64,000 bases of DNA, from contig JBAZEY010000003.1 in the NCBI GenBank assembly GCA_041653675.1, positions 13,284 to 77,283 of the forward strand. The letters are read 5' to 3'. The notes under the pieces are model-generated. The model had not been told where the DNA came from and did no database searches. It saw only the letters and a program-made list of their open reading frames with translations. Each line of letters opens with the position of its first letter. Position 1 is the stretch's first letter. The position numbers and the translations under genes were made by a program. This document shows positions 7,992 through 52,204 of this stretch, piece after piece. The DNA comes from Patescibacteria group bacterium (GTDB lineage Bacteria > Patescibacteriota > Patescibacteriia > XYB2-FULL-38-15).

Positions 7992-10900
7992 ATGTTTAGT
8001 TCAGGAGGAGAAAAACCTAATATTAAATTACCATCCCAAAGCGGAACCAACTTAACTTTGTTGGTGTTTGCTTTGGGTATTTTGTCATTAGCAAGTATTG
8101 GAGTAATGACTCTTTCTGTTGTGAAACAACTTCGGCCGACAGCGTTCACGGCAATTAATAAACAGCTGAACTATCAAGGTAAATTACAAAACGCGGGAGG
8201 CATAACGCTCGCGGACGGAAATTACTCAATGAAGTTTTCCATTTACGACGATCCAACCGTCGGCTCGAGACTTTGGACAGAATGTGGCACAGTCGGTACG
8301 CCGACGGCTCGTACCGTCGCGGTTGCGAACGGGGTTTTCTCGGTGATGCTCGGAGATACAAATTCCAATTCTTGTCCCGGTGGAACGGATTCCAACGCCA
8401 TCACACTGGATTTTAATAGTGACAGTTATTATCTTGGTTTTACCGTGGAGTCCGATTCAGAAATGCTTCCGAGAAAACGATTGGGTGCTTCGGGTTACGC
8501 TTTCAACGCGGATTTATTAGACGGATTTAATACTTCAGCCGCCGGCGGTTCGGTCGCTTTCGTGCCGGTGACGGACGCAAGCGGACATTTAACTTTGACG
8601 CAAAATTTAATTTTGGGTGGAGTTTTAAAAAATGCAGACGGTACTGTCGGCGCGCCGAGCTATACCTTCACGAGCGACCTTGATACAGGACTTTATTATT
8701 CAGCGACACAAATAAATATTGGTGTCGGCGGAAGCACGGTGGCAAATGTAAGCGCTTCGGGTTTAGCCGTAGATACGGTCAAAACTTTAACCGCGACGAC
8801 TTTAACTTTAAAAGGCACGGTTGCCGACGGCGGAACAGCTGTTGGCGCGACGATTGGTTCCAACAGTACTCTTTCTACTACCGGCGCGAAACTTGCTTCC
8901 TTTGTAAACAACACTACTGAGAAAGCATATATAGATAAAGATGGTTATTGGAACGCCCCTAATGGTGCGGCTGGCACTCCTTCAATTACTTTTGCAAATG
9001 ATAAAGATAATGGATTTTTTTATTCTTCCGCTAATAATTGGCGGGCGGTTGCTAACGGAACTGCTATTTTAGAATTTGATGCAAGTGGCATTTATGTTGG
9101 TGGTTCAGGAAACATAGGGTCAGGTAATAATATTACTCTTACTCTTAAGAGTTTTCAGGTCGATGGTGCCGCAAATGTTGCAGTTGCTCAGGATACTTAT
9201 TATGCGTTTGTAACTGCTGGAGCTAAACTTTTTTCTTGGAAAAATCATCAAGTTGAAAAAGCATATGTTGATTATCTAGGCTCGTTCAACGCCGGAGCGG
9301 GGACAAATCTTTTACCAGCGTATTCGTTTGTTGGCGATCCAAATACTGGAATATATAATCCGAGTGCAGACCGTGTAGATTTAGTCGCAGGAGGAACCGT
9401 TCAACTCGCAATAACCTCTGGCACTATTTATTTTGATAATATGAGGGCTTTGAACTTGGTGAGTCTTGGATTAAGAGGGGCGATTGCCGACGGAGCAAGT
9501 GCGATCGGCACAAAAATGGGAAATGCTATAGCTCTTACCACTGCTGGAGCAAAGATTGTAAGTTTTTATAATGATGCTTGGGTAACTGAAAAAGCATATA
9601 TTGATAAAGACGGAAATTTTTATGGCCCCGGGGCAAATTTTTCCGGTCTCTCTGTCTCGTCGGCTGTTTATACCGACGCTTCAAAAAATTTAACTTCTAC
9701 AGCTCCGGCCACGGGCACGATTGGATATTGGTCCCGCGCCACGACAACTTTGTCTCCAGCTACAGCCAATGATATTGTCGCGGTCACCGGCAACTCCGGA
9801 GATCTTTTAACTTTAACTTCAACCGCAACCGGCGCTTCTAACAAAGCTTTAAGTATTGCCGCTTCCGGCGCAACAGTTGGCACAGATTACGGCGCATATA
9901 TTTCAAATACCGGCGCGGCCACAACAAATGTCGGTCTCTACACGACCGCCTCTGGCGCAACAAATAACTACGCTGCGATTTTTGACGCGGGGTATGTTGG
10001 TATTGGTAATACAACTCCAACAGCGTCTTTGACTTTAACTCAGGCTGCCGGCACGACTGGCACTCCCTCAGCTTTTATTATTACGGGGGGTGCTCACACC
10101 GGAATAACTGCGGCGACAGAAGATATTGGGGTGAATTTAAATTTTTCAGCGAATAAAACTTGGGCGGCCGGCGCCGGACCATTGGCCACTCAAAGGGAAG
10201 TCGTGGTTCAAGCCCCAACTTATATTGGTGATGTAGGCGGAGCATTGACCATGACTGATGCGGCGACATTCTATATCTCTGGTGCGCCTACGGCCGGGGC
10301 GAATATGACTATTAGTAATCCGTGGGCATTATGGATTGATGCCGGAAATGTTAGACTAGATGGAAATTTAAAAGTAGATTCACTTTCCGCTTCCTCCGCT
10401 GTTTATACTGACGCTTCCAAAAATTTAACTTCAACCCCGCCTGCTACGGGCGCGATCGGATATTGGTCTCGTACCGGCACGACTCTCTCTCCCGCGACGG
10501 CGAATGATGTGGTTAATGTCGATTCCAATACTGTGGGTGCAGCTATTAGTTCTACGGCGACGAATAGTGGCGCGGTTGCAAACTCTGGCGGTAATTTTTT
10601 GGCTGCCGGAACTAGCGGAGCAATGGGCGTTTATGGTGGCGCGAGCGGCGCTGGCACGGTTTACGGTGTTTATGGCCAAGCTTCTAATCCTGGGGCAGTA
10701 ACAAATTATGGTGTTTATGGAACGGCCGCCGGAGATACGGGCGTCGGTGTTTTTGGCTCTGCTACGGACACTGGCGCAGCTATAAACTACGGCGGTTACT
10801 TTACGGCCGCTGGAACGGGTGGCGCAGTTGGTATTTATAGTGAAGCGACTGGAACTGGCGGTGCGGCTGTTTCCGGTCTAGCTAGTGCTACTACCAGTGC

Positions 10901-13900
10901 TCTTAATTTTGGCGGATATTTTGAAGCAAGAGGTGACCATAGCTGGAGCTTCGGAGTTAAGGGATATCTTCCGAATAGTGTTGACGGTAAGGCAGTAGTC
11001 GGACATGCTGCGGAAACGACATCAACAAATTATGGCGGTTGGTTTCAATCAGATGGCGCAACGGGCATTGGAGTTTATGGTAAATCAACTTATACATCAA
11101 CGGCGACTGTTAATTATGGCGGTTGGTTTAGGGCAGACGGTCTGGCGGGTCGCGGCGTTTATGGCGAAACGACCACTGTGGGAGCAACCATTACTCACGG
11201 CGGCGATTTTTGGGCGGCGAGTACGGGGACAAGTACAAGTGGCGCGCGCGGCGTAGCAACTGGCGCTGGAACGGTTTATGGCGTTGAGGGTCTTGCTCAA
11301 AGTACCGGCGCGGTTACAAACTTCGGCGGCTATTTTACTGCTAGCGGTGAGACTGGCCGCGGCGTTTATGGCATGGCTGACAACACTGCCGTTGCGGCAA
11401 CCAACTATGGCGGTCACTTTACGGCCGCGGGTGCAGGTGCCAACACTACAGGCGTTTATGGTGAAGGCAGCAGCTCCGGCGCGGTTACAAATTATGGTGG
11501 TCGCTTTATCGCTGCAGGTGAAACAGGCATTGGCGCTTATGGCAATGCGACTTCAACTGGCGCGACAGTTAACTATGGCGGAAAATTTTATGCTGGAGGT
11601 TCGGGAGGAGCATACGGCGTCTATGGCGAAGCCAACAATGTTTCCGGAACAAACTATGGCGTCTATGGCAAGGTAACTTCTGGTTATGCTGTTTATGGTG
11701 ACCACGGAACAGTTTTTGGTTATTTGGCTGATAAAAATTATGGAGTTTATGGCCAATACAGCGCGACTCAGTTTGGCTATATAGGCGATTCAACTTATGG
11801 TGTTTATGCCCGTGGGACGATTGGCGTTTATGGAACAGACGGAACAAGATATGGACAATTGGGAACGGGAAGTAATGGTGTGTATGGTTATTATGACGCC
11901 ACGCATTATGGTTATATTGGCGGCGCAACCAATGGTGTGTATGGCACTGGCGGCACAGGCGAAGGCGTGCGCGGCGAAGCAACGACTGGTTATGGCGTTA
12001 TTGGTTTAGCTAGCGATACCGGCGCGGTCACAAATTATGGCGGATATTTTTCAGCGGCCGGCGATACTGGTCAAGGCGTTTATGGAACAGCTCCTGACGC
12101 TGGCGCGGTTATAAACTATGGCGGATATTTCTCTTCCGCCGGTACAGGCACCGGCGCGACCGGCGTCCTTGGCACAACTGCTGCCGCTGGTACGGTTTAT
12201 GGCGTTCAAGGAAAAGCGACGAACACGGGCGCTGTCACAAACTACGGCGGATATTTCTTGGCGTATGGCGACACGGGCCAAGGTATCTATGCCGGTGGCA
12301 TGGATACCGGCGCGGTCACAAATTATGGCGGTTATTTTGAAGCCGCTGGCACAACTGGCCGCGCGGTTTTTGGTGCGGCTCTGGCAACCGGAGCGTCAAC
12401 TGCGTATGGTGGATATTTTACATCGGCAAGTGATACTGGCCGCGGCGTTTATGGCGCAGCGACTGATACCGGCGCGGTTGTAAATTACGGCGGATATTTT
12501 TCTTCTGCCGGCACGGGCACTGGCGCAGCCGGCGTTTATGGCACAAGCGCTGCCACGGGAACGGTTTACGGAGTGCAAGGTTACGCTTCAAACACAGGCG
12601 CTTACGAAAATTATGGCGGTTATTTTGTCGCCAATGGCACAACTAGTCGCGGCGTTTATGGTCAGGCCAATACTTCTGGCGCGACTGTAAGTTACGGCGG
12701 TTATTTTTCATCTTCTAGTACTGGCGCAGGCACAGCTGGCGTTTACGGTATAGGCGCCGGCGCGGGTACGGTTTATGGCGTTACTGGTTTAGCTAGCAAT
12801 ACCGGCGCGGTTACAAATTATGGCGGCGTTTTTTCGGCCGCTGGCACAACTGGCCGCGCGGTGTATGGCGAAGCAAGTAGCTCGGGGGCGACAGCGAACT
12901 ATGGAGGTTACTTTACGGCAGCCGGAACAGGTGGCGCTCGAGGCGTCTTTGGTACTGCCAGCGGTGCGAGCGGCACCAATTACGGAATTTACGGCAGCGT
13001 AACTTCTGCAACAGGCTACGCAGGTTATTTCACCGGCGGTTACGGCGTCTACGCGAGTTTGGCGCATATTGCCGGAACCGGAGCGGGCGGAGAAGAGCTT
13101 GACGTGGAAGGACAAATCCAGTTTGATCTTGATGGTACAACCGATACATTAATTGGTGTTTGTAAAAGCGTGGCTGATGGGGCGGGCGTGGAAGCTGATG
13201 TAGAATTCCGTGATTGTACTTCAACGCCTTCCGATATTGCCGAATGGTATGATACAACTGGCACTGAGGCCGGGGATGTTGTTGCGGCAACCGACGACAC
13301 AGTTACTTTCCAAGGTGAAATGTATGATCCATTAACTGGCTTGCCGCTCGGCACACAAGAAACTATTACGGCAACAATTTTGACTCCCTCATCAGAGCCG
13401 TATCAAAAAACACTCCTTGGCGTAGTTTCTACAAACCCTTATGAATCTTTTGGTAAGGGCGTGATCGATGTTTCACATTTGCCAAATCCAATAGCTGTTG
13501 TTGGCCGTGTGCCAACTAAAGTTTCCACTGAAAACGGCGTCATCCGTCCGGGCGATCCGATTACTTCTTCATCAGTTACCGGCGTGGGCATGAAAGCAAC
13601 TAAACCAGGCATGATTATTGGTTACGCGGTTGATCACTATTCTGGCGCTGGCATTGGAACAGCTTTTGTTAACATTAATCCAGGCTGGCATTCTGGTTTT
13701 GCTATAAATACCGACGGAGTGATTTCTTTATTTGATGATGATTTTACTTTTAATACTTCCGGCATAGCTGATGGAATAATTCAGGGATATAATTCCAAAG
13801 GCTTGGCGTTCCGCGGATCTGGTTGGGACGGTGCCGCGGCGCAAAATATAGAAATGAAAATTGGTAACGTTGTTACGGACGCGTCAAATTATAAATTATC

Positions 13901-15230
13901 AGTTCTAAATAATGCGGGAACCGAAGTAGCTTATCTTGATCAGGCTGGAGCTCTTGGACTTTCTGGGAAATTTTATCCTGCCTCGCCGACTGGCGCGCAG
14001 ACCGACGCTTACATTTTTTATCGCAATAACCGCATTAGAACCAACGCCTCTGGGTGGGCGACCGGTTCATTTGATTTTGCGGAAATGTTTTTATCACGCG
14101 AATTATTAGAAGCCGGCGATGTTGTCATCTTGGATGAAACAACAAATGAGTATGTGAAAAAATCGACCGCGGCTTATGATAAGATGGCGCTCGGCATTGT
14201 TTCCACCGAACCAGGTTTTTTGGCCGGAACTAATGTTAATTTTGATGATCCTTCGGCAGATCAAGGTTATCCGATTGCTTTGGCTGGCCGTGTGCCGACA
14301 AAAGTTTCCGCGGAAAACGGACCAATCAGGCCTGGCGATTTTCTTACGACTTCAACTACTTCTGGCGCAGCCATGAAAGCTACGGAATCGGGCATAATCA
14401 TCGGCACGGCGCTTGAAAGTTTTGATGGCCCAGGAGTTGGTTTAATCAAAGTTTTTGTAAATCTTGCTTGGTACAACGTAACCGGAGACGTGACGCCGGT
14501 TAGTGAAATGTCACAGCTCACTCTTTCTGGTGATTTGAATATGAATGGTAATTACATTTTGAATGTTGGGAAAATTGTCGGACAAGATGAAAAATGGAGT
14601 ATTGATGAAAATGGAATTTTAAAAATTAAATTAATCGCGGAAGACGCGACAGAAAAAGAAATGTTTGGACTTTCTTCGGCCAAAGTGGAACTGACTTTGT
14701 CCGGAACCGACCGGCTGGAAAATGGGACCAAGATGATAGATCTCAGTTTAATTGATCCAGAATTTGTTAAAAATATTTCGGCCGAGACGCCGCTTAAAGT
14801 TGTGGTAACTTTAAACGAACAAGCTTATGGAGTCTACGTTGCTGAAAAAACTGCTTACAGTTTCCGCGTGGCGGAATTGAACGCCGGAACTTCCGACGCG
14901 GCTTTTGATTGGATTGTAATTGCGAGACGAAAAGGCTATGATGATCCGCCGCCGACCGAGGTTGCACCTCCAACCGAACCAGCTCCGGCTCCGAGTGAAC
15001 CGGCACCAGTAGAATCAACTCCGAGTGAGCCAGCGCCAAGCGAACCAGCACCGTCAGAGCCTGCACCTTCTGAACCAATTCCGACTGAACCAGCCCCCGC
15101 GCCAACCGAACCGGTACCAACTGAACCAGCCCCCGCCGAGCCGACTCCTGCGCCGACTGAACCAGCTCCAAGTGAACCCGCACCGGCGCCAACAGAACCT
15201 GCTCCAAGCGAACCGGCTCCGGCAATATAA
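7992..15230 (+). CDS. Giant (2412 aa) N-terminally anchored surface fiber-like protein
   Basis: N-terminal TM anchor (LTLLVFALGILSLASIGVMTL). A conserved domain (LNYQGKL...YYLGFTVESDSEMLPRKRLGASGYAFNADLLDG) is shared with 15415..17829. Two repeats of about 230 aa (SSAVYTDASKNLTST...GYVGIGNTTPTASLTL, tail-fibre-like motif). About 35 repeats of 20 aa (NYGGYF(T/S)AAGxTGxGVYG). A C-terminal module occurs twice (D(I/F)AE(W/M)...GDVV...LG(V/I)VST(N/E)P...AGRVPTKVSxENGxIRPGDxxTTS...AMKAT). Pro-rich PAPSE/PAPTE tail. Confidence 0.8.
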   Translation: MFSSGGEKPNIKLPSQSGTNLTLLVFALGILSLASIGVMTLSVVKQLRPTAFTAINKQLNYQGKLQNAGGITLADGNYSMKFSIYDDPTVGSRLWTECGTVGTPTARTVAVANGVFSVMLGDTNSNSCPGGTDSNAITLDFNSDSYYLGFTVESDSEMLPRKRLGASGYAFNADLLDGFNTSAAGGSVAFVPVTDASGHLTLTQNLILGGVLKNADGTVGAPSYTFTSDLDTGLYYSATQINIGVGGSTVANVSASGLAVDTVKTLTATTLTLKGTVADGGTAVGATIGSNSTLSTTGAKLASFVNNTTEKAYIDKDGYWNAPNGAAGTPSITFANDKDNGFFYSSANNWRAVANGTAILEFDASGIYVGGSGNIGSGNNITLTLKSFQVDGAANVAVAQDTYYAFVTAGAKLFSWKNHQVEKAYVDYLGSFNAGAGTNLLPAYSFVGDPNTGIYNPSADRVDLVAGGTVQLAITSGTIYFDNMRALNLVSLGLRGAIADGASAIGTKMGNAIALTTAGAKIVSFYNDAWVTEKAYIDKDGNFYGPGANFSGLSVSSAVYTDASKNLTSTAPATGTIGYWSRATTTLSPATANDIVAVTGNSGDLLTLTSTATGASNKALSIAASGATVGTDYGAYISNTGAATTNVGLYTTASGATNNYAAIFDAGYVGIGNTTPTASLTLTQAAGTTGTPSAFIITGGAHTGITAATEDIGVNLNFSANKTWAAGAGPLATQREVVVQAPTYIGDVGGALTMTDAATFYISGAPTAGANMTISNPWALWIDAGNVRLDGNLKVDSLSASSAVYTDASKNLTSTPPATGAIGYWSRTGTTLSPATANDVVNVDSNTVGAAISSTATNSGAVANSGGNFLAAGTSGAMGVYGGASGAGTVYGVYGQASNPGAVTNYGVYGTAAGDTGVGVFGSATDTGAAINYGGYFTAAGTGGAVGIYSEATGTGGAAVSGLASATTSALNFGGYFEARGDHSWSFGVKGYLPNSVDGKAVVGHAAETTSTNYGGWFQSDGATGIGVYGKSTYTSTATVNYGGWFRADGLAGRGVYGETTTVGATITHGGDFWAASTGTSTSGARGVATGAGTVYGVEGLAQSTGAVTNFGGYFTASGETGRGVYGMADNTAVAATNYGGHFTAAGAGANTTGVYGEGSSSGAVTNYGGRFIAAGETGIGAYGNATSTGATVNYGGKFYAGGSGGAYGVYGEANNVSGTNYGVYGKVTSGYAVYGDHGTVFGYLADKNYGVYGQYSATQFGYIGDSTYGVYARGTIGVYGTDGTRYGQLGTGSNGVYGYYDATHYGYIGGATNGVYGTGGTGEGVRGEATTGYGVIGLASDTGAVTNYGGYFSAAGDTGQGVYGTAPDAGAVINYGGYFSSAGTGTGATGVLGTTAAAGTVYGVQGKATNTGAVTNYGGYFLAYGDTGQGIYAGGMDTGAVTNYGGYFEAAGTTGRAVFGAALATGASTAYGGYFTSASDTGRGVYGAATDTGAVVNYGGYFSSAGTGTGAAGVYGTSAATGTVYGVQGYASNTGAYENYGGYFVANGTTSRGVYGQANTSGATVSYGGYFSSSSTGAGTAGVYGIGAGAGTVYGVTGLASNTGAVTNYGGVFSAAGTTGRAVYGEASSSGATANYGGYFTAAGTGGARGVFGTASGASGTNYGIYGSVTSATGYAGYFTGGYGVYASLAHIAGTGAGGEELDVEGQIQFDLDGTTDTLIGVCKSVADGAGVEADVEFRDCTSTPSDIAEWYDTTGTEAGDVVAATDDTVTFQGEMYDPLTGLPLGTQETITATILTPSSEPYQKTLLGVVSTNPYESFGKGVIDVSHLPNPIAVVGRVPTKVSTENGVIRPGDPITSSSVTGVGMKATKPGMIIGYAVDHYSGAGIGTAFVNINPGWHSGFAINTDGVISLFDDDFTFNTSGIADGIIQGYNSKGLAFRGSGWDGAAAQNIEMKIGNVVTDASNYKLSVLNNAGTEVAYLDQAGALGLSGKFYPASPTGAQTDAYIFYRNNRIRTNASGWATGSFDFAEMFLSRELLEAGDVVILDETTNEYVKKSTAAYDKMALGIVSTEPGFLAGTNVNFDDPSADQGYPIALAGRVPTKVSAENGPIRPGDFLTTSTTSGAAMKATESGIIIGTALESFDGPGVGLIKVFVNLAWYNVTGDVTPVSEMSQLTLSGDLNMNGNYILNVGKIVGQDEKWSIDENGILKIKLIAEDATEKEMFGLSSAKVELTLSGTDRLENGTKMIDLSLIDPEFVKNISAETPLKVVVTLNEQAYGVYVAEKTAYSFRVAELNAGTSDAAFDWIVIARRKGYDDPPPTEVAPPTEPAPAPSEPAPVESTPSEPAPSEPAPSEPAPSEPIPTEPAPAPTEPVPTEPAPAEPTPAPTEPAPSEPAPAPTEPAPSEPAPAI
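10590..13060 (+). repeat. About 35 tandem copies of a 60-nt / 20-aa Gly-Tyr repeat (NYGGYFxAAGxxGxGVYG) inside the giant gene
   Basis: Highly periodic nucleotide and protein repeat. It generates many spurious antisense ORFs in the six-frame track. Confidence 0.85.
14944..15227 (+). repeat. Pro-rich PAPSE/PAPTE low-complexity tandem repeat encoding the C-terminal tail
   Basis: gaaccagc(a/t)cc(g/a)(a/t)(g/c)(c/t)ga-type repeats encoding APSEPAPSEPAPTEPAPAP. Confidence 0.8.
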
Positions 15231-15282
15231 AAAGAATTGTAAGCGAGTTGTGCCTTCGGGTACGGGCCATAACTCGTATATA

Positions 15283-15316
15283 AGAGCAGCTCCCCACCGC
15301 AAGGTGAGGAGTTGTT
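15283..15316 (+). terminator. Rho-independent terminator after the giant gene
   Basis: Hairpin agctccccacc gcaa ggtgaggag followed by ttgttgtatt. Confidence 0.5.
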
Positions 15317-15401
15317 GTATTATGTTAGATAAAGGGGATCTCGGAAAAATTTAAAATTATATAGTGATACAAACTTGACTAAAGAATTTTTGAGTATTTT
15401 G

Positions 15402-15410
15402 TGGTATAAT
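15402..15410 (+). promoter_or_regulatory. Extended -10 element (TGgTATAAT) for the paralogous surface-protein gene
   Basis: tggtataat sits 4 nt before the track's GTG start at 15415. That start is therefore improbable, and the ATG at 15439 is more likely. Confidence 0.4.
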
Positions 15411-15438
15411 AAATGTGGATAATTTATTTAGTAATCTT

Positions 15439-17829
15439 CATATGTTTGATTACAAAGAAAAAAAGATTTCTCGGCAGCCAAAACGCAGAAAAACAAAATT
15501 GCGCCCTCTGGTTTTAATTTTAGGGATTTTTGCCGTGGCAAGTCTTGGTATTATTGCTATTGCCTTGTTGAAAAATTGGAGTTTTCCAGCTTCCGCAGCG
15601 CCAGGAATTTATAAGGTTTTAAATTACCAGGGAAAATTAGAAGATTCAGGCGGAGTTACGGTAGCTGATGGTGCATACAATATTAAATTTACAATTTACG
15701 ACGCAGCCGCGGCAGGAAATGTCCTTTGGTCTGCCCGAGAATCGGATGCTTGCGGCGCGGCTTTTAATCCTGCGGTAAAATCAGTCACAACTTCGCTTGG
15801 CGTATTCTCTACCCAACTTGGTGAGTCGGGTGATTGTCCGTTGAATTTAGATTTTAATAGTGATTCATATTATCTCGGCATAACCATTGGCGCTGATTCA
15901 GAAATGACTCCGAGAAAACGTATTGGCGCGGCCGGTTACGCTTTTAATGCGGATTTATTGGATGGTTTAACCACCTCTCTGGTCGGCGGCGCCTCTTCTT
16001 TTGTTCCCGCAACTGACGCTTCAGGAAATTTAGTTTTAACCGCCAATGTTACTTTTGACACACCCACTTTTTTTCTTGATTCTACTAATGATAATATTGG
16101 TATTGGTACCATTACACCAACCGCGACTCGTACCCTGGATTTAACGACGGCGAAAAAATATGGCATTTATGCCTCCTCAAGCGCGGCCATAAACCACATG
16201 GCGGTAATTTATGCCGAGGCAACGGACACAACAAACGTTGATCAGATGGGCGGATATTTTTCTTCAGCGAGTCCGAGCGGGAAGGGCGTTTATGGGGCAG
16301 CGGTTACAACGGGAAATCCGCTTGTCGCGAACCAGGGAGGATATTTTACCGCGGCTGGTGATTCGGGGCAGGGTGTTTATGGCGAAGGTTCAGCCTCTGG
16401 CGCTGTGACAAATTACGGGGGATATTTTGTGACACAAGGCGATACAGGATATGCAATTAGGGGCTTGGCTATGGCTACGGGTGGCGTAAACTATGGCGGA
16501 TATTTTAGAGCAAATGGTCCGGGCGGCTATGGAGTTTATGGCTACGCGGCGGATGCAAGTGCAGTGGCAAACTACGGCGGATATTTTACGGCAGCGGGTA
16601 CAGGCGCGGGAACAAGCGGTGTTTACGGTTTGGCATCGGGGGCTGGGGCAGTTTATGGTGTTAGAGGAGAAGTTTCAAACGCAACCGCAGTAACAAACTA
16701 TGGTGGATATTTTACCGCGGCTGGCAGTGGAGCTCTCGCGAGCGGTGTTTACGGAGAGGCTACTGCCGCCGGTTCAGTTATAGGTGTTAGGGGTTATGCG
16801 TCAGACCTTACTGCCGGAATTACAAATTATGGCGGATATTTTTCAGCTCAAGGCGGTACAGCCCGTGCCGTTTTTGGTGATGCCACCAATAATGGAGCAG
16901 AAATAAACTATGGAGGATATTTTACAGCGAGAGGAAGTGCTGTTGGCACCTCTGGAGTTTATGGGGAGGCGAGCGCGTCGGCTGCAGTCTACGGCGTTTA
17001 CGGAAAAGCTACTGACACTGGCGCGGTCGCGAATTATGGCGGATATTTTACTGCGGCTGGCGAGGACGGCGCTGCAGTTTATGGCGCAGCTACATCTGCG
17101 GCTGGCACGGCGAACAATGTAGGCGGATATTTTACGGCGGCGGGAGGTGGCGCAGATGCTTACGGCGTTTACGCTACTGTTACTGGGGGCGGCAACAACT
17201 TTGGTATTTATGCAAGTACGATATCAGCTACTGGCTGGGCTGGGTTTTTTAACGGTGGCAGGGGAATTTACGCTCTTCGTTTTTCAATTAATGACGGCAT
17301 CACCGTGGTTGATTATAATACCATTGGTCCGGCCCTTGCAGGTCACGTTGCGGCAGGAGAAATTACCGATCAGAACGATCTTTTCATTAATGGTAACTTG
17401 GAAGTTGACGGTGCCGTTTGGCTTGATGGTGGGCATACTGATTTGGCAGAAATGGTGGCGTATAGCGGAGAGGGTGAAGCCGGCGATGTTGTTGTGGTTG
17501 ATGAAAATAACGATAACTCGGCAAAGATTGCGGCCAAACCTTATGACCAAAGTATTCTTGGTATAATTTCTACCAAGCCGACATTGGTCATCACGGGTGA
17601 TATCACGGAAGGAAAATTAATGGCCGTAGCCGGCCGCGTCCCAACCAAGGTGACAAATATAAATGGAGCAATTCATCGTGGTGACCCGCTCACAACTTCT
17701 TCTTTGCCCGGTTACGCCATGAAGGCAACTGAAGCAGGGCCGATTGTTGGAAAATCTTTAGGTGAATGTGACCAACAAGAATGCGTCATTTGGGTTTTCT
17801 TAAATGTCAGTTGGTACGGAGGAATATAA
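15439..17829 (+). CDS. Paralogous anchored surface fiber-like protein (about 800 aa)
   Basis: N-terminal TM (LVLILGIFAVASLGIIAIALL). The same post-TM conserved domain (LNYQGKLEDSGG...YYLGITIGADSEMTPRKRIGAAGYAFNADLLDG), the NIGIGTITPTATRTLDL motif, about 15 NYGGYFTAAG repeats, and the shared C-terminal module (DLAEMV...LGIISTKP...AGRVPTKVTNINGAIHRGDPLTTS...AMKAT). Confidence 0.75.
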   Translation, partial: HMFDYKEKKISRQPKRRKTKLRPLVLILGIFAVASLGIIAIALLKNWSFPASAAPGIYKVLNYQGKLEDSGGVTVADGAYNIKFTIYDAAAAGNVLWSARESDACGAAFNPAVKSVTTSLGVFSTQLGESGDCPLNLDFNSDSYYLGITIGADSEMTPRKRIGAAGYAFNADLLDGLTTSLVGGASSFVPATDASGNLVLTANVTFDTPTFFLDSTNDNIGIGTITPTATRTLDLTTAKKYGIYASSSAAINHMAVIYAEATDTTNVDQMGGYFSSASPSGKGVYGAAVTTGNPLVANQGGYFTAAGDSGQGVYGEGSASGAVTNYGGYFVTQGDTGYAIRGLAMATGGVNYGGYFRANGPGGYGVYGYAADASAVANYGGYFTAAGTGAGTSGVYGLASGAGAVYGVRGEVSNATAVTNYGGYFTAAGSGALASGVYGEATAAGSVIGVRGYASDLTAGITNYGGYFSAQGGTARAVFGDATNNGAEINYGGYFTARGSAVGTSGVYGEASASAAVYGVYGKATDTGAVANYGGYFTAAGEDGAAVYGAATSAAGTANNVGGYFTAAGGGADAYGVYATVTGGGNNFGIYASTISATGWAGFFNGGRGIYALRFSINDGITVVDYNTIGPALAGHVAAGEITDQNDLFINGNLEVDGAVWLDGGHTDLAEMVAYSGEGEAGDVVVVDENNDNSAKIAAKPYDQSILGIISTKPTLVITGDITEGKLMAVAGRVPTKVTNINGAIHRGDPLTTSSLPGYAMKATEAGPIVGKSLGECDQQECVIWVFLNVSWYGGI
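16240..17260 (+). repeat. NYGGYF 20-aa tandem repeat region of the paralog
   Basis: Same period and consensus as 10590-13060. Confidence 0.8.
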
Positions 17830-17850
17830 AATTAAAAAATATTTTAGTAA

Positions 17851-17888
17851 AACTCCTCATCTTTTGGTGGGGAGTTTTTGTTTTTTGG
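17851..17888 (+). terminator. Rho-independent terminator
   Basis: aactcctcatcttttggtggggagtt followed by tttgtttttt. Confidence 0.55.
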
Positions 17889-17900
17889 TGTTTGACAAGG

Positions 17901-17929
17901 TTGACAAAATGTTAAAAATATGCTATTAT
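17901..17929 (+). promoter_or_regulatory. Sigma70-like promoter (TTGACA-17-TATTAT) upstream of the GC-rich lipoprotein gene
   Basis: ttgaca aaatgttaaaaatatgc tattat. An AT-rich host-type promoter that abuts the GC-rich gene. Confidence 0.5.
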
Positions 17930-18059
17930 TAATTGTAAAATTAGAGATGGAGATTAAGTGAAATTTGCTTTAAAATAAAGGATAAAGCCAATTTCAGGTG
18001 ACCTTCAACTTTTGGAGAACAACCGTTCCGCGAGAGGGCGGAACAAGGAGGATTTAGTG

Positions 18060-18665
18060 ATGAAGACGACGATGATCGCGATGGTGCTTGTTTCCGTGTT
18101 CGCGACTGGCTGCTGGGATAGCTACCAGAACTACGGCGAAGACACTTCGCCCCTCGCGACTTGCGAGGTCGAGGTGACGACGAACGTGGTCGAGGTGGTG
18201 ATCACGGTGGACGGCGTCGTGATCGGTGGCGTTGCGGAACTCGCGACGGGCATGCACACTTTCGCTGCTACGGCTCCCGGGTATTACCCGGCAAGCGTGG
18301 TTGCGGAAGTAACCGAAGCATGCGCTCCGGTCGAACTCCAGCTCTTCCCGGATCTCGCCGGTGACTACGATCTCGTGCTACACAATAGCATCTATGATCG
18401 GCTGCTGCTCCACCTCGACCAGGATGAGGAAGGCAACCTCGTCGGCTACGACTGGTACACTGATGATCCGGGACACAGCTTCCAGGATTTCACCGGCACT
18501 GTTTCGTTCGATGGAGAAGTTCATCTCCTCTCGGACGATTCGGTCCGGCTGAATCTCACTGGCCGCTGGACTCCTCCGGGAATTGGTGGCGTCAGCCGTA
18601 TCGTCGGCAACTGGACCTCCGCTGCGGGAGGCGACGGAGACTGGCTCGCCGAGTCGCGACCGTAG
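18060..18665 (+). CDS. GC-rich lipoprotein with a PEGA-like domain
   Basis: RBS AAGGAGG 10 nt upstream. Lipoprotein signal MKTTMIAMVLVSVFATGC. The segment VVITVDGVVIGGVAELATGMHTFAATAPGYYPAS fits the PEGA pattern. About 60% GC against a roughly 40% background. Confidence 0.6.
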   Translation: MKTTMIAMVLVSVFATGCWDSYQNYGEDTSPLATCEVEVTTNVVEVVITVDGVVIGGVAELATGMHTFAATAPGYYPASVVAEVTEACAPVELQLFPDLAGDYDLVLHNSIYDRLLLHLDQDEEGNLVGYDWYTDDPGHSFQDFTGTVSFDGEVHLLSDDSVRLNLTGRWTPPGIGGVSRIVGNWTSAAGGDGDWLAESRP

Positions 18666-18676
18666 GTTACGACTCG

Positions 18677-18736
18677 AACCGGCATCTGGCAGAAATCGTG
18701 AAGAACGATTCTGTCGGATGCCGGTGTTTTTATTTC
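18677..18736 (+). terminator. Long imperfect hairpin plus T-run; copy 1 of a duplicated 58-nt element
   Basis: ccggcatctggcagaaatcg tgaagaa cgattctgtcggatgccgg followed by tgtttttatttc. Near-identical to 20278-20336. Confidence 0.6.
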
Positions 18737-18834
18737 AGAAAATCTAAAGAAGCACGCCTTGACTTTTGAGACATAATATATATGATAACGGCATAGATGG
18801 TCGGCTAGAGGTAGCCGACACAAGGAGGAGAAAG

Positions 18835-20184
18835 ATGAAAAAGGGGAACGGAAGGATCAAGGGGCTCTTTTTGATCGTCATCGCGACGATCGCGATTCTC
18901 GCCTATGCCGCTTGTGGCGACGACGAGCAGTTGTGTCCCAGCGCAGGGGACTGCATGGGACGGGAGTGCGGGCCGGATCCGGTTTGCATGACATCGTGCG
19001 GTGCATGCTCAATCGGAGAAGCATGTTCGGCGGACGGGATATGTATGCCGGACTGCGTGTCCAACTGCGCCGGCCGCGAGTGCGGATGGGACCCGGTCTG
19101 CGGCAACATGTCTTGCGGGACATGCCCGGCGGATCGGCCCAACTGCAATGCCACTACGGGGACTTGTTCGACTGATGGCCCGGATTGTCCGGCAGACCGC
19201 GACTGCGCCGGCCGCGAGTGCGGCCTCGATCCAATCTGCAGCGTTTCCTGCGGGACGTGTTCGGGCGGTGAGACGTGCAGTTCATCAGGAAGATGTGTTT
19301 GCGCTCCCAACTGCTCCGGCCGCGAGTGTGGGCTTGACCCAGTTTGTAGCGTCTCCTGCGGGACGTGTTCAAGCCCAGAGACATGCACTCCATCTGGAAC
19401 GTGCAACTGTACCAGGAACTGCGCCGGCCGTGAATGTGGTCCCGATCCGATTTGTGGCGTTTCCTGCGGCTCGTGTTCAGCTGGCTCATGCACCACGACG
19501 GGCACGTGCACCACGTGTTCATCCGGCGCAACGGAGTCGTGCGCCAATCTTTGCGGTTCGGCTGGCACGCGGAGTTGTAGTGTTTCGGGCGAATGGGGGC
19601 GGTGTCAGGGTGGGACTGCTCTGGTTCCTGTGGCTCTTACGGATGACACCTACATCGACAACGACCCCCCAACTGTCAACCACGGAACCGAAGAATTCGT
19701 GATCATAGGAAAGGGCGTTGCCGCTGACCCACGTCGCCTAGCATTCTTCCGTTTTGATGCGGATTTGGATACGTGGCGGGCGGAGGGCGCCACGTCGATA
19801 ATTCAGGCCGACCTGAGCGTATACGTGAGTGACCGCTTAGGCAGTCAACTTGAACTCTATGGTCTCTCAAATACGACCGGTGGTACTTGCGTGTGGAATG
19901 AAGATACACTGACGTATTACACCCAAGTCACCGCAGGAAGCACGAACTGCTATCCGGACCCGCTTGGCTGGGTCTACCCCGACATTTCGATGATTGTGGA
20001 TTACTCGATGGGCTACGTGGATATCACGGCGTATGTCCAGTGGCTTTGGGACGGCGCGGAGAACGACGGCTTCATGTTGACGAACAATTCGGGGAGTTCC
20101 ACTCCGTTTGCACGGTTGATTATCAACAGCACCGAGAATTCCCGGGATCCACCGAGCGTTTTGGTGAGAGTATCCTGCGAATAG
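18835..20184 (+). CDS. GC-rich secreted/lipoprotein: about 7 Cys-rich repeats (C..GRECG.DP.C..SCG.CS) plus a C-terminal DNRLRE-like domain
   Basis: RBS AAGGAGGAG. Signal LFLIVIATIAILAYAAC. Repeats such as DCAGRECGLDPICSVSCGTCSGGETCSSSGRC. The C-terminal domain carries the DNRLRE-family landmarks (DDTYIDNDPPTVNHG..., RLAFFRFDADL, WNEDTLTYYT, VDITAYVQWLWDGAENDGFML, INSTENSRDPPSVLVRV). Confidence 0.6.
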   Translation: MKKGNGRIKGLFLIVIATIAILAYAACGDDEQLCPSAGDCMGRECGPDPVCMTSCGACSIGEACSADGICMPDCVSNCAGRECGWDPVCGNMSCGTCPADRPNCNATTGTCSTDGPDCPADRDCAGRECGLDPICSVSCGTCSGGETCSSSGRCVCAPNCSGRECGLDPVCSVSCGTCSSPETCTPSGTCNCTRNCAGRECGPDPICGVSCGSCSAGSCTTTGTCTTCSSGATESCANLCGSAGTRSCSVSGEWGRCQGGTALVPVALTDDTYIDNDPPTVNHGTEEFVIIGKGVAADPRRLAFFRFDADLDTWRAEGATSIIQADLSVYVSDRLGSQLELYGLSNTTGGTCVWNEDTLTYYTQVTAGSTNCYPDPLGWVYPDISMIVDYSMGYVDITAYVQWLWDGAENDGFMLTNNSGSSTPFARLIINSTENSRDPPSVLVRVSCE

Positions 20185-20277
20185 CAGGAGAGCGGGCCGT
20201 GGACGGATTGTCTTAGCCCTCAGTACATAGATCGACGGGTGGCTGAATCTGGGTAGCCGAGTCACGGACGTGACCTA

Positions 20278-20336
20278 AACCGGCATCTGGCAGAAATCGC
20301 GAAGAACGATTCTGTCAGGTGCCGGCATTTTTTATT
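20278..20336 (+). terminator. Copy 2 of the duplicated hairpin-terminator element
   Basis: ccggcatctggcagaaatcg cgaagaa cgattctgtcaggtgccgg followed by cattttttatt. Confidence 0.6.
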
Positions 20337-20435
20337 ATAGAATTTTTCTTGACTTGATTTTTATGCTATAATTACTTAATTAATTTAACCGCTTATCCCC
20401 TAAAGTGAGTCTTTTGGGGAAAGTAAAACTTAAAT

Positions 20436-22787
20436 ATGAACACAATCGCGAACATTTGTGACAAGCTAGTGAAAGTTTGCCTAGCTTTTTTAGTTTTTGT
20501 TTTGCCAGTATTTTTTCTGCCATGGACGTTTGAAACTCTGGATTTTAACAAACAAAATATGTTGATCATTCTTACTCTTTTGGCCGGTCTAGCCTGGCTT
20601 GGGAAGATGATCGCTTCAAGACAAGTAACCTTAAGGAGAAGTTTTTTAAATGTATTAATTTTGTTATACACTGCGATTTATACTTTAGCGACGATTTTTT
20701 CATTCGATAAAATAAGAAGCTTTATCGGCGCATCTGGGCTCGAAAAGGAAGGGCTTGTGACAGTTCTTTGTTTTGTTGTTTTATACTTTATTATTATTAA
20801 CAATTTCCGTGATATAAAGGCGATAAAAAATTTACTTTACGCCTACCTTCTAGGCGCGGGGCTTGTAACAATATGGACAACACTCGCTTTTTTTGGAGTG
20901 TTGCCATCAGTGTTAATTTCTAGCCAGGCTCTAAACACGGTCGGCACCCTTAACGCTTTAGGAATTTTTCTTGTAGCCGCGTTTGTTTTACTTTGCCCAC
21001 TATTTTTAGGAGCTGAAACGGAAAAGGGCAAGAGCAGTAAAAAAGATCTTATAATAAAAATTGTGATGGCTGTAGTCGCCGCTCTTATGCTTTTTATCTT
21101 GGCGACGATTGATAACTGGACCGTATGGGCAATTTTTGTCCCGGCTATCGCCTTGATTTTAGCTTTTGCCATTATCAGAGCCCATGAAATCAAAAATTTA
21201 GGATGGTTATCTTTGCCCATGGCAGCTTTTGTTATCGCAGTTCTTTTATTTTTTATTAATACTCCGATTCCTTCACGTTTGCCGGCGGAAATTATGCCCT
21301 CTTTTTCTGCGAGTAGCGGGATTGCGAGGCAGACCTTGAGGGAGTCGCCGCTTTTGGGTTCTGGGCCGAGCACATATGTTTTTGATTATGCCAAATACAA
21401 GCCAGAGGGAGTAAATGAAACGCAACTTTGGGATGTTAAATTTGATCGCTCCGCCTCACGAGTATTAACCATGCTTACGACCACCGGGCTTTTTGGGATT
21501 ATTTCATGGCTGTTTGTTGTAGTCTTTTTGGGAGTTTTGGTTATTATTAATTTGATCAAAGAAAAATCCGGAGCGCTGTGGCTCAACCAATTGGCTGTTG
21601 GCGGAGCTTGGTTTGCCTTGCTTCTCGCAAAATTTATCTATTCTTCAAATTTAACTTTGGAATTTTCTTTCTGGATTCTTACGGCAATTTTAGTGGTTAT
21701 GACCTCTCATAAATTTTGGGAAATTTCTTTGAGTGGCGCGCCACGCATTTCCTTGATTTTGTCTTTTGCTTTAGCCCTCGGGTTGATTTTAACAGTCTCG
21801 TCGTTTTATCTTGTCGGCGAGCGCTATGCGGCTGACGCGAAGTTTGTCCAGGCAATAACATCCTTTAATAAAGGAGAAGACTTAAGCAAGTCTACGGAAC
21901 TTTTGAATCAAGCTGCTTCATTAAACCAACACAACGATGTTTATCTCAGAAATTTAGCTCAAAGTTTGCAGGCTGAAATAAATCAGACGATGGCAGCCAA
22001 ACCTTCCGAGGATGTGGCTAAAAAAATTCAGGATTTGGTGGCGGCTGATGTCCAGGTGGCAAAGCGCGCAACCGAAATTTCTCCAAAAAATTCAGCTAAT
22101 TGGGCGACGCTAGCGTCAATTTATCAAACAATCATGTCTCTTATCTCTGGAGCCGATGAATGGGCAGTGAATTCTTGGCAGAAGGCGATTGAGCTTGAGC
22201 CGTCGAGCCCGTATCTTTACACAGAGTTGGGAAAAACTTACGCGGCAATGGCCGATATGCTCGCGCCAAGTCTTCAATCGAAAGACGATAAGGTAAAAGC
22301 TGACGCTGAGACTAAGGTCAAGGAATATTTAACTAAAGCCGAGGAACAACTTAATAAGGCGATTGAAATCAAGGCGGATTATGCGCCAGCACATTTTGAA
22401 TTGGCTTTAGTGTATGGCCGTCAGGGAAAAATAAATGAGGCAATTAGTAAATTGGAAACCATTCAAGATTCTTTGTCGAACGACGTCGGCGTTGCTTTTC
22501 AGCTCGGCTTACTCTATGCGCAAAATAAAGAACTGGACAAAGCTACAGCTGAATTGGAAAAGGCAGTTGAACTTGCGCCAAGCTTTGCTAACGCGCGGTG
22601 GTATTTAGCGGCAATTTATGAGGAGCAGGGCAAAAAAGATTTAGCGTTGGCGCAGCTGGAAGAAATTTTAAAGACCAATCCGGATAATGAGACTGTTAAG
22701 CAGAAGATCGAGTCTTTAAAAAATCCAGCAGCCGAAGAAACCACGCCTTTACCAAATCCAATCCCCGAAACGGTTCCGGCACAATAG
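20436..22787 (+). CDS. Polytopic membrane protein (O-antigen ligase/Wzy_C-like) fused to a C-terminal TPR domain
   Basis: About 12 TM helices, then RESPLLGSGPSTYVF (ligase-like loop), then 4-5 TPR units (e.g. ARWYLAAIYEEQGKKDLALAQLEEILKTNPDNE). Confidence 0.5.
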   Translation: MNTIANICDKLVKVCLAFLVFVLPVFFLPWTFETLDFNKQNMLIILTLLAGLAWLGKMIASRQVTLRRSFLNVLILLYTAIYTLATIFSFDKIRSFIGASGLEKEGLVTVLCFVVLYFIIINNFRDIKAIKNLLYAYLLGAGLVTIWTTLAFFGVLPSVLISSQALNTVGTLNALGIFLVAAFVLLCPLFLGAETEKGKSSKKDLIIKIVMAVVAALMLFILATIDNWTVWAIFVPAIALILAFAIIRAHEIKNLGWLSLPMAAFVIAVLLFFINTPIPSRLPAEIMPSFSASSGIARQTLRESPLLGSGPSTYVFDYAKYKPEGVNETQLWDVKFDRSASRVLTMLTTTGLFGIISWLFVVVFLGVLVIINLIKEKSGALWLNQLAVGGAWFALLLAKFIYSSNLTLEFSFWILTAILVVMTSHKFWEISLSGAPRISLILSFALALGLILTVSSFYLVGERYAADAKFVQAITSFNKGEDLSKSTELLNQAASLNQHNDVYLRNLAQSLQAEINQTMAAKPSEDVAKKIQDLVAADVQVAKRATEISPKNSANWATLASIYQTIMSLISGADEWAVNSWQKAIELEPSSPYLYTELGKTYAAMADMLAPSLQSKDDKVKADAETKVKEYLTKAEEQLNKAIEIKADYAPAHFELALVYGRQGKINEAISKLETIQDSLSNDVGVAFQLGLLYAQNKELDKATAELEKAVELAPSFANARWYLAAIYEEQGKKDLALAQLEEILKTNPDNETVKQKIESLKNPAAEETTPLPNPIPETVPAQ

Positions 22788-44630: not shown

Positions 44631-44659
44631 TTGACAAATGATATTTTCTGGCCTAAGAT
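44631..44659 (+). promoter_or_regulatory. Promoter (TTGACA-17-TAAGAT) for the GC-rich cNMP-binding gene
   Basis: ttgaca aatgatattttctggcc taagat. Confidence 0.45.
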
Positions 44660-44700
44660 GGGTAATCACGAACAAAAAGGGAGGGAAGGGAGGACTGATC

Positions 44701-45555
44701 GTGAGTGAAGAAACGAATGGTTGCCAGGGTAGTGAGCCCGTGGTCGAGGACAGATCTGAAAATTGCGTCCCTGGCGTCGAAGAAGACGGGGGAAGCAGCG
44801 AAAGGCAGTGCGATACTCTTGAGGGTTTGACGCAGTCGAAGGCGCTTGCCGCTTTTCTCGGGCAGCTCAAGATTGTGGAGATCCCTCCGGGCGGACGCCT
44901 TTACCAAGAAGGCGACCTCATCTCGCAAGTCTGCTACATCGTGAGCGGCAGGGTCGAAGTCAAGGCGACCGGTGAATTGATCGCCACAGTAGAAAAGGGC
45001 GAGCTGCTTGGGCTGGAAGAATTTCGTTACCGCAAGGAGAGCCCGAAATATACCCAAGAAGCGGTAGCTGTTCTGCCAACCTCGGTTGTCTGGCTGGATA
45101 ACGAAGGCCTAAGGACAGTCTTGGACTTGAACGCGGATTGTTTGGCGGCCTACGTTCGGCTACAGGCCAGAGTGAAGAGGGCGATCGAAAAGAAGCTCGG
45201 CCAGCTCAAGATAGACAAGAGCAAGCTGGAGGTTAGGGTTGCCCGACTGGGGGTAGCTTTGGGAGCAACCCAGGAGCAGCTCGTCAAGCTGCAAAAGCCG
45301 CCGCAGCCGCCTCCACCGCCGCGCAAACCTCTTCCATCAACAGCACTTCTTGGAAAGTTGGATGAAGCGCGTCGGGTTATTCGCGAGATGGGCCAGCTTT
45401 TCGTCGCGAGGGCCACAAACCTCAAGAAACTGCTCGTGGCTTTGCACGAGTTCGCCACGAAACATCCAGACTGGGCCAAACAGGAGGATTTCGTCGCGTT
45501 CAAGAAGAGCTTCGAAGGGCTTGTAGAACGTGATTCTCAATTCAAGGTGCCGTGA
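44701..45555 (+). CDS. GC-rich cyclic-nucleotide-binding domain protein with coiled-coil and Pro-rich segment
   Basis: GTG start with RBS AGGGAGGA. cNMP-binding fold (YQEGDLISQVCYIVSGRVEVKATGELIATVEKGELLGLEEF...). PPQPPPPPRKP linker. Confidence 0.6.
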   Translation: MSEETNGCQGSEPVVEDRSENCVPGVEEDGGSSERQCDTLEGLTQSKALAAFLGQLKIVEIPPGGRLYQEGDLISQVCYIVSGRVEVKATGELIATVEKGELLGLEEFRYRKESPKYTQEAVAVLPTSVVWLDNEGLRTVLDLNADCLAAYVRLQARVKRAIEKKLGQLKIDKSKLEVRVARLGVALGATQEQLVKLQKPPQPPPPPRKPLPSTALLGKLDEARRVIREMGQLFVARATNLKKLLVALHEFATKHPDWAKQEDFVAFKKSFEGLVERDSQFKVP

Positions 45556-45600
45556 AGCGGCACGAGCCGGACACTTTCAAGAGGTGTCCGGCATTTTATT
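45548..45600. terminator. Double hairpin bidirectional terminator
   Basis: gtgccgtgaagcggcac plus gccggacactttcaagaggtgtccggc followed by attttatttt. Confidence 0.6.
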
Positions 45601-45693
45601 TTATAACTTAATTATTAAATTTTTATAAAAAAATTCTGCCGCGGCTTGTGGCTTTGGCAGAATGGTGAAAACGATGGCGGCTGCTCGAGTTCG

Positions 45694-46449: not shown

Positions 46450-46516
46450 CTGTATCCTCCTTACTGATTTTATTTTAACAAACTAAAAATAAATTTCAAA
46501 ATTTATAAAATAAAAA

Positions 46517-46560
46517 AAGGGGCTTCCGCGCGGCGTTACGAAACACCTTGCGGAAGCCCT
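46517..46560 (-). terminator. Strong Rho-independent terminator (minus strand)
   Basis: gggcttccgcaaggtgtttcgtaacgccgcgcggaagcccc followed by tttttttatttt on the minus strand. Confidence 0.7.
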
Positions 46561-52129: not shown

Positions 52130-52204
52130 TGGGGTGGCTACTGGGAGTTGAACCCAGGCTAGCGGGACCACAACCCGCTGTTCTACCGTTAAACTATAGC
52201 CACC
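52130..52204 (-). tRNA. tRNA-His (GTG) with encoded G-1 and CCA
   Basis: G-1 pairs with C73. Acceptor GTGGCTA/TAGCCAC. Anticodon loop TTGTGGT. T-arm CTGGG TTCAACT CCCAG. Confidence 0.85.

Follow-up and report, generated by a model that had tools for sequence, protein, structure and literature searches.

The locus described here, an array of genes for secreted proteins in which the same terminator-like hairpin recurs, has several described counterparts. In the variable surface lipoprotein loci of Mycoplasma (vlp, vsp, and vsa), tandem genes carry near-identical modules of promoter, 5' untranslated region (5'UTR), and signal peptide, joined to divergent mature parts. Flexible genomic islands, of the replacement or additive type, are exchanged by homologous recombination in their conserved flanks. 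The Correia elements of Neisseria, as well as the repetitive extragenic palindromic (REP) sequences and bacterial interspersed mosaic elements (BIMEs) of enterobacteria, are dispersed repeats that bear terminators. The element under study is a hairpin followed by a T-run, present in two copies behind two neighboring GC-rich genes, A and B, in a stretch of 64,000 nucleotides (nt) from a groundwater member of the Patescibacteria that resembles Falkowbacteria (contig JBAZEY010000003.1 of assembly GCA_041653675.1). This whole stretch is referred to below as the window.

With a probability of roughly three in four, the hairpin is a Rho-independent terminator that serves as the 3' module of self-contained cassettes exchanged by recombination at one hypervariable locus. 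By its structure it is an ordinary intrinsic terminator, a familiar type of element; what is less usual is its employment as a standard 3' module. A cassette would comprise a promoter, a structured leader, a signal peptide, a variable gene body, and the terminator, which would insulate it from the promoter of the next cassette. The terminator and promoter-leader modules around unrelated bodies would offer the homology for RecA-type addition, deletion, reordering, and swapping of cassettes between lineages (RecA is encoded in the window), and the same hairpin would stand behind both GC-rich genes because these shared modules serve as recombination homology.

The repeated hairpin with its T-run behind both GC-rich genes, reported in an initial annotation made from the sequence alone, is real: the consensus given there agrees with the sequence, and the two copies form a direct repeat of 55 nt (18677-18731 and 20278-20332, family D9 among the repeats of the window) with 91% identity and a spacing of 1601 nt. 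When folded, as that annotation had suggested, both copies give strong hairpins on the + strand, each with a stem of 19-20 base pairs (bp), one bulged base, and a 7-nt loop. Their free energies are -35.9 kcal/mol for copy 1 and -31.4 kcal/mol for copy 2 (z of -6.9 and -6.1), values that none of 200 shuffled sequences reached, and the folds of the minus strand are weaker (-25.5 and -26.0 kcal/mol, respectively). With up to three mismatches allowed, the window still contains just two occurrences of the conserved 20-mer of the 5' arm and two of the 3' arm, where shuffles lead one to expect approximately none. A covariance model built from 18 homologous copies and run over the window with filters off likewise finds only these two, at 80.3 and 79.7 bits; the next-best match, at 20.8 bits, is the generic hairpin-plus-T-run terminator of another gene. 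On this model the window copies score 80 bits on the + strand and 32 bits on the minus strand. The claim that each copy directly follows a stop codon holds for copy 1, which starts 11 nt past the stop of gene A (18663-18665), and fails for copy 2, which starts 93 nt past the true stop of gene B (20182-20184). The TGA directly upstream of copy 2 (20271-20273) is the stop of a non-coding relic that resembles the 3' end of gene A.

The comparison of copies from different genomes suggests that the structure is kept at the RNA level. In an alignment of 18 distinct copies from 12 lineages, with 20 stem pairs, 98.9% of the 350 stem cells are paired, against 29-46% in a control where the 3' partners are shifted by 1-3 columns. 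Of the pairs, ten are invariant, two have changes in both partners, and in seven just one partner varies (G-C to G.U, U-A to U.G). The stem cells that are not Watson-Crick pairs comprise 33 G.U and a single A.C, so that the helix on the opposite strand would be only 89.7% paired. The base of the stem is CCGG/CCGG, and in all 18 copies a T-run of 5-7 begins 1-2 nt past it. Over the copies, scores on the covariance model are ~80-90 bits for the coding strand but fall to ~22-44 bits for the opposite one. Every one of the 19 copies at hand lies 3' of a gene, on the coding strand of that gene, and is followed by a promoter-like module of one of three types, named P1, P2, and P3.

These copies come from a search with the 20-mer in 185,579 reference genomes (one per species) and in IMG/VR, and with a structure-tolerant 22-mer in JGI metagenome contigs, further copies being collected by blastn-short and the covariance model. 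Five matches were obtained in the reference genomes. One is true and belongs to a metagenome-assembled genome (MAG) of Candidatus Falkowbacteria (L002); the other four (Ensifer, an Acidobacteria MAG, a Spartobacteria MAG, and an unclassified MAG) are chance 20-mers without a hairpin. Seven of the nine metagenome loci are true, with L008 and L013 discarded as chance matches. Three copies lie on one contig of 2,970 bp (L010), and three on a contig of 151 kb, all of them inside the array. Contigs that encode homologues of gene A added six more lineages, for a total of 19 copies of at least 70 bits in 12 lineages. In a thirteenth and most diverged lineage (L025), the same place is occupied by a hairpin of another sequence and the same architecture, that is, a long hairpin plus T-run. 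All copies found belong to one syntenic locus of Falkowbacteria-like genomes. The gene A family has only 21 homologues among 5.8 billion protein clusters, and all six that bear a taxon name are Patescibacteria or Falkowbacteria. The 20-mer scan of IMG/VR viral contigs gave no match, and phage and plasmid collections, searched by BLAST with the entire island, contained no match either. Rfam, searched at the gathering threshold over the whole window and at E<=1 over 17800-20500, returned no family for the hairpin or the leaders; its sole match at E<=1 in that region is a sub-threshold L10-leader on the upstream terminator. Nothing relevant was found in the literature on Falkowbacteria lipoproteins, on horizontal gene transfer and surface proteins in Patescibacteria, or on repeated terminators associated with cassettes.

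In every lineage the locus is bounded by the same surface protein of ~800 amino acids (aa) and the same TPR gene, with one to three GC-rich genes in variable combination between them. The genes that precede the hairpin are of at least four unrelated kinds: A, a PEGA-like lipoprotein; B, with a Cys-rich region and a CBM96 domain; C, a lipoprotein and metalloprotease of the M10/metzincin type; and D, with a DUF1566-like end. The array holds A alone in L002, L012, L018, L022, and L025, and C alone in L009. It reads A,B in the window, with 0 mismatches in the independent assembly L028, A,D in L014, A,C,B in L015 (identical to L016), A,B,B' in L010, C,A in L024, and E,A in L020, and in L023 C and A are fused as an operon. 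An apparent fourth array type in L016, with a gene 'X' of 323 aa, was dismissed as a call in the wrong frame, L016 being identical to L015 over 1,800 nt. L002, which lacks gene B, has gene A, a single hairpin, and then P3 and the TPR gene. Across lineages the G+C content at third codon positions (GC3) of the array genes is 0.59-0.81, against 0.25-0.45 in host genes; in the window it is 0.72 for gene A and 0.65 for gene B, against 0.25-0.45 in 36 other genes.

The modules between the bodies recur as well. P1, a putative promoter with a structured leader of ~130 nt, precedes A and C in the relatives. P2 combines a putative promoter, a covarying 5'UTR stem, a Shine-Dalgarno sequence, and the signal peptide MKKGN...AYAACGDDE, and is common to B and B' (whose signal peptides are identical) and, more loosely, to D. 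Its stem covaries between cassettes (GTCGGCT/AGCCGAC, GCCGGCT/AGCTGG, and GCCGACT/AGTCGG), and the P2 site is kept after hairpins in L010 (twice), L014, and L015. P3 is the fixed downstream border of the array, kept after the last hairpin in L002, L007/L015, L009, L010, and L012. The hairpin module itself stands behind almost every array gene. The recurrence of P1, P2, and the hairpin suggests that the latter is one part of a repeated terminator-then-promoter junction between self-contained expression units. The Shine-Dalgarno sequences of genes A and B are strong, and a small stem-loop lies just upstream of each.

Besides gain and loss of whole genes, the array differs between lineages in its alleles. 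Between L002 and L018, the flanks are 80-98% and the hairpin 83% identical, while the body of A is only 50-70% identical; the similarity decreases at the P1 leader and rises again at the hairpin. The TPR and A genes are incongruent, with identities of 92% and 64%, respectively, for L002 and L018, and of 90% and 67% for L020 and L022. Relics similar to the one before copy 2 are found before the last hairpin in L010 and L014. The single hairpin of L002 has a 5' part that resembles copy 1 and a 3' part that resembles copy 2, which fits a crossover between two copies, with informative sites too few for proof. Copies within one genome differ at a mean of 4.0 positions and copies from different genomes at 8.3, a contrast that none of 20,000 permutations matched and that is strongest in L015 and L010. 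These comparisons of sequence indicate that cassettes are gained, lost, reordered, and replaced by other alleles through homologous recombination in the conserved modules.

Several points weigh against the view of the hairpin as a terminator exchanged in this manner. The covariation score was reached by 139 of 500 shuffles, and such statistics are weak with only two double-sided pairs; the hairpin sequence itself is highly conserved, which accounts for this weakness, and the structural argument consequently rests on the near-complete pairing, the slide controls, and the asymmetry between G.U and A.C. Between lineages the hairpin is ~85-98% identical where the flanking coding genes are 70-92% identical; together with the few double-sided pairs, this suggests that a constraint beyond structure may act. 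Part of the set of copies was found by a pattern in the 5' arm, and the conservation of that arm is therefore inflated. The stem, at 19-20 bp, exceeds that of a typical intrinsic terminator, and termination as such is deduced from the anatomy alone. Recombination, likewise deduced from comparisons of sequence, is the probable mechanism of exchange. Moreover, the two window copies are not each other's nearest relatives, so that homogenization is not evident in the window.

Among the alternatives, the least probable is a recent simple tandem duplication of the 3' end of gene A together with its terminator, restricted to this genome and of no wider significance. It would account for the similarity of the two copies, which reaches ~30 nt upstream, where the last codons of gene A (DWLAESRP and the stop) are resembled by the non-coding relic before copy 2 (IWVAESRT and the stop). 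However, the relic aligns with the 3' ends of the A alleles of L018, L022, and L020 (local scores of 36-39, against 15.5 +/- 2.4 and a maximum of 26 for shuffles) and not with the gene A of the window (21, within the shuffle range), which argues that copy 2 is the terminator of a second, different A allele and not a fresh local duplicate. In addition, the two copies differ at seven positions, each being closest to the copy of L002, and 11 other lineages have this hairpin behind non-homologous genes. The initial annotation had named such a duplication, with only these two copies in existence, as what would speak against its proposals; the further copies in relatives and the allele match of the relic contradict it. 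Copy 2 would instead descend from the terminator of a second gene-A allele that is now almost wholly deleted. A mobile repeat with a terminator, akin to miniature inverted-repeat transposable elements (MITEs), REP, or Correia elements and inserted behind genes, is very unlikely as well. It agrees with the occurrence of the repeated hairpin after unrelated genes, and with the long hairpins of weak similarity that L018 and L023 have at a second site, behind further GC-rich lipoprotein genes. Yet the copies, which a small mobile terminator repeat (as the initial annotation had also envisaged) would have scattered, are confined to the one syntenic locus, with two in the 64 kb of the window and three in the 151-kb contig. 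They have a single orientation and a single position relative to genes, and they show no target-site duplications, flanking direct repeats, or element ends, the upstream side fading into gene-A relics and the downstream side into variable spacer. The repeat is also absent from viral contigs, phages, plasmids, and all but one of the reference genomes.

On an extremely unlikely reading, the hairpins are sites of site-specific recombination, attC-like or of another kind, on which a tyrosine recombinase acts while the DNA is single-stranded and folded. Imperfect inverted repeats of ~50 nt do lie at the 3' ends of cassettes whose number and order vary between genomes, and a tyrosine recombinase is encoded in the window. 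Against this, the RYYYAAC and GTTRRRY cores are not found, the 3' side being TGTTTTT, CATTTTT, TCTTTTT, AATTTTT, or GCTTTTT and the 5' flanks ctcgAAC, cctaAAC, gttgAAC, or tgaagAAC; there is no unpaired central spacer, and pairing is selected on the mRNA-sense strand and not on the bottom strand. Each cassette carries its own conserved module P1 or P2, with putative promoter activity, rather than being promoterless. The sole tyrosine recombinase of the window (52347-53264) lies 32 kb away and is of the Xer type (252 bits for XerC, and 127 bits on the integron integrase model against a cut-off of 265). No integrase lies beside the array, the flanks in every relative being surface proteins, the TPR protein, and YchF, and the junctions hold coding relics of variable length instead of precise site-to-site joints. 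Identification as an integron attC site was accordingly rejected, its core motifs, an adjacent IntI, and promoterless cassettes having all been looked for without being found, and the structure being selected on the sense strand. The suggestion that the genes are separate cassettes with a common 3' element thus stands, given the unrelated genes before the hairpin and the number and order that vary over 12 lineages, whereas their capture in the manner of integrons does not. A rather different possibility, improbable though not negligible, adds to the terminator reading a sequence-specific role of the RNA, either as a determinant of RNase III processing or stability or as the binding site of a protein that handles the mRNAs of secreted proteins. 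It would explain the strong conservation of the hairpin sequence, the loop, and the G.U positions: the A genes are only 57-85% identical where the hairpin has the values given above, the loop TGAAGAA hardly varies, and 11-12 of the 18 copies have the wobble pairs at columns 9-45 and 13-41. A 20-bp stem with a single bulge is also in the size range of RNase III substrates. Conversely, the most diverged lineage (L025) keeps the architecture only and not the sequence, AT-biased mutation with selection for pairing alone would enrich G.U, the 5' arm is subject to the ascertainment bias already mentioned, and no candidate partner is known.

The positions of the features of the locus in the window are collected in the table.

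Table. Features of the cassette locus in the window, in order of position.
Feature	Position	Strand	Description
804-aa repeat-rich surface protein	15415-17829	+	Conserved upstream flank; own terminator 17849-17878
P1 promoter-like site, cassette A	17901-17929	+	TTGACA, 17 nt, TGnTATTAT extended -10; 11/12 matches, TG present
P1 5' leader, ~130 nt	17930-18059	+	Predicted long-range helix; stem 18025-18044 just 5' of Shine-Dalgarno 18045-18051
Gene A	18060-18665	+	201-aa lipoprotein-like protein; signal peptide, FATGC lipobox, PEGA-like N-terminal domain; GC 0.60, GC3 0.72
Hairpin copy 1	18677-18734	+	5' arm 18679-18698, loop 18699-18705, 3' arm 18706-18724, T-run 18727-18731
P2 promoter-like site, cassette B	18759-18786	+	TTGACT, 16 nt including TA-repeat tract, TATGAT
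P2 5'UTR	18800-18834	+	Stem-loop 18800-18819, Shine-Dalgarno 18822-18828, spacer to ATG at 18835
Gene B	18835-20184	+	449-aa secreted protein; signal peptide, five GRECGxDPxCGxSCGxC Cys-rich repeats, C-terminal CBM96/DNRLRE; GC 0.59, GC3 0.65
Gene-A 3'-end relic, non-coding	20244-20277	+	IWVAESRT and stop at 20247-20273; L018/L022/L020 allele type
Hairpin copy 2	20278-20335	+	5' arm 20280-20299, loop 20300-20306, 3' arm 20307-20325, T-run 20328-20333
Putative P3 promoter region and leader of TPR gene	20349-20435	+	TTGACT 20349-20354; extended -10 TGCTATAAT 20364-20372; read from sequence
783-aa TPR membrane protein	20436-22787	+	Conserved downstream flank

The promoter function of the P1, P2, and P3 sites is a prediction from their sequence. 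The P1 leader (~110-160 nt; 17930-18059 in the window, ~745-845 in L002, ~9870-10000 and ~10730-10859 in L015) is conserved in 13 loci. An alignment of the 13 leaders predicts 23 pairs, nine of which show compensatory double changes, and no Rfam family corresponds to it; the leader may represent a hitherto undescribed cis-regulatory RNA for the secreted-protein genes of this clade. In P2, the spacer between the -35 and -10 boxes contains a (TA)n tract (18765-18786 in the window, 11620-11650 in L015). The spacer measures 16 nt in both the window and L010, L015 has 4 nt more, and the tract resembles those involved in the dinucleotide-repeat phase variation of surface-protein promoters. Independent assemblies of the window strain are identical, with no variation of the tract seen within the population, and there is no invertase nearby. 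Directly downstream of the hairpin, an additional short inverted repeat (atcaagcgagcgagaaaaatgaaat and atttcatttccgagcgagcg) is found in L009 (1200-1250), L014 (10575-10625), L020 (8715-8770), and L023 (after 3760); it is absent from the window.

The origin of the gene bodies is more evident for some cassettes than for others. The Cys-rich region of gene B has 373 homologues below an E value of 0.001. Among the 120 listed, most bear no taxon name and the named ones are mostly Myxococcota or 'Deltaproteobacteria' MAGs; in the matches listed, the region is fused to FGE-sulfatase, CarboxypepD_reg, PEGA, or DUF1566 domains. Two of the closest homologues outside the locus, whose contigs were examined, lie in DNA of uniformly 62-65% GC, with no hairpin and no AT-rich flanks. 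These homologues make import from GC-rich bacteria plausible for B and D, and a foreign, Myxococcota-like origin is proposed for the gene bodies. For gene A, on the other hand, a profile-free search of 1.8 billion representative proteins gave no outside donor, and its protein has no match in Pfam; the only remote matches are to PEGA-like repeats and to its C-terminal domain, which recurs as repeats in giant proteins. The cassettes keep a GC3 of 0.65-0.8 in genomes whose GC3 is ~0.35, even though the core genes of these lineages have diverged to 70-80% identity, a persistence that constitutes a puzzle.

In the wider window, YchF, ribosomal protein S6, single-stranded DNA-binding protein (SSB), RecA, tRNAs, and giant repeat-rich surface proteins mark a chromosome of the Patescibacteria or Candidate Phyla Radiation (CPR). 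Immediately before the array lie two very large repeat-rich surface proteins of 2412 and 804 aa (7992-17829), the latter with approximately nine degenerate 'NYGGYFxA…GVYG' repeats (families D2-D4, D7, and D8) and no match in Pfam or NCBIfam. Within gene B, the Cys-rich repeats are arranged as tandem units of ~108 nt (36 aa; 18940-19510, families D5 and D6) with 62-80% DNA identity, and the homologues in relatives have other repeat numbers and C-terminal domains, which points to a mosaic structure. The Xer-type recombinase, encoded on the minus strand, adjoins tRNA-Arg and tRNA-His (52130-52288, also on the minus strand), and passes the cut-off of the archaeal XerA-type model only (244 bits against 220).

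GC-rich genes are also found at other places. A second GC-rich island of the window (44638-47140, GC3 0.63-0.67) holds a cyclic-nucleotide (cNMP)-binding protein (44638-45555, + strand) with its own CCGG-based hairpin terminator (45565-45601), and a lipoprotein (45694-46449, - strand) whose N-terminus, MKTKMMIAVLFVMALGC, resembles the signal peptide of gene A. It also includes a GC-rich stretch of ~580 nt (46560-47140, - strand) that ends in a terminator (46509-46562). This stretch, which has no convincing match in Rfam, contains an open reading frame of 135 aa with no match in Pfam, and may be a protein gene or an unrecognized structured RNA. In L018 (8286-8929) and L023 (7772-8238), extra GC-rich lipoprotein genes (GC3 0.72) occupy a second site, between YchF and a methyltransferase, each with a P1-like promoter and a long hairpin terminator that scores ~24 bits on the covariance model. 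The ends of this hairpin are AACCGGC...GCCGGTG in L018 and differ in L023. The modules of GC-rich secreted-protein genes thus appear to occupy more than one hot spot.

The hairpin is valuable as a marker. The locus that it reveals in uncultured Patescibacteria is compact and hypervariable: unrelated and compositionally foreign secreted-protein genes are set in the same native modules, and number, order, and allele differ between close relatives. If the modules mediate the exchange, they would give ultra-small symbiotic bacteria a simple means, independent of a recombinase, of diversifying their surface, and searches for the hairpin or the leader would provide a handle for finding the host-interaction genes between them. 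A tentative and more far-reaching proposal is that Falkowbacteria-like CPR bacteria keep an integrase-free 'plug-and-play' cassette platform, in which standard modules surround foreign GC-rich surface genes of the Myxococcota type (adhesin-like, lectin-like, or protease) and act as portable homology for their swapping, stacking, or loss. Were this the case, cassette exchange would diversify the cell surface that the episymbiont presents to its host, and the lasting high GC3 of the cassettes would reflect either continual re-import or a GC bias associated with recombination. From a practical point of view, the locus is a natural source of portable parts, both promoters and terminators, for a group that lacks genetic tools.

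Compared with known systems, the hairpin shares with intrinsic terminators the GC-based stem-loop and U-run, the position 3' of a stop codon on the coding strand, and a pairing that is kept while G.U is tolerated. It differs in its unusually long, once-bulged stem, in that sequence and not just structure is kept across genomes with core genes 70-80% identical, and in the reuse of the same terminator behind unrelated neighboring genes. Integron cassettes and their attC sites are similar in that independent genes form an array, each gene ends in an imperfect inverted repeat of about the same size, and number and order vary; the locus departs from them by having no R' and R'' cores and no adjacent intI, and by its own putative promoters, its sense-RNA structure, and its imprecise junctions with relics. 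Like the Correia, REP, and BIME sequences, the hairpin is a repeated short palindrome able to act as a terminator or as a stabilizer of mRNA 3' ends, but it is restricted to one locus and one orientation, with no signs of transposition.

Flexible genomic islands resemble this locus in their fixed position between conserved genes, their strain-specific atypical content, and alleles that are incongruent with the flanks. The difference is that the homology apparently used here consists of short, standard regulatory modules inside the island, between every gene, and is not limited to the core genes at its borders. The variable lipoprotein loci of Mycoplasma are similar in several respects: surface or secreted genes lie in tandem and join shared promoter, 5'UTR, and signal-peptide modules to divergent mature parts, the bacterium is host-associated with a reduced genome, and the content of the locus differs between strains. 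Here, however, there is no invertase or demonstrated phase-variable tract, with only the (TA)n tract of P2 differing between genomes, the bodies are unrelated families with a foreign GC content rather than repeat variants of one family, and the conserved terminator belongs to the unit.

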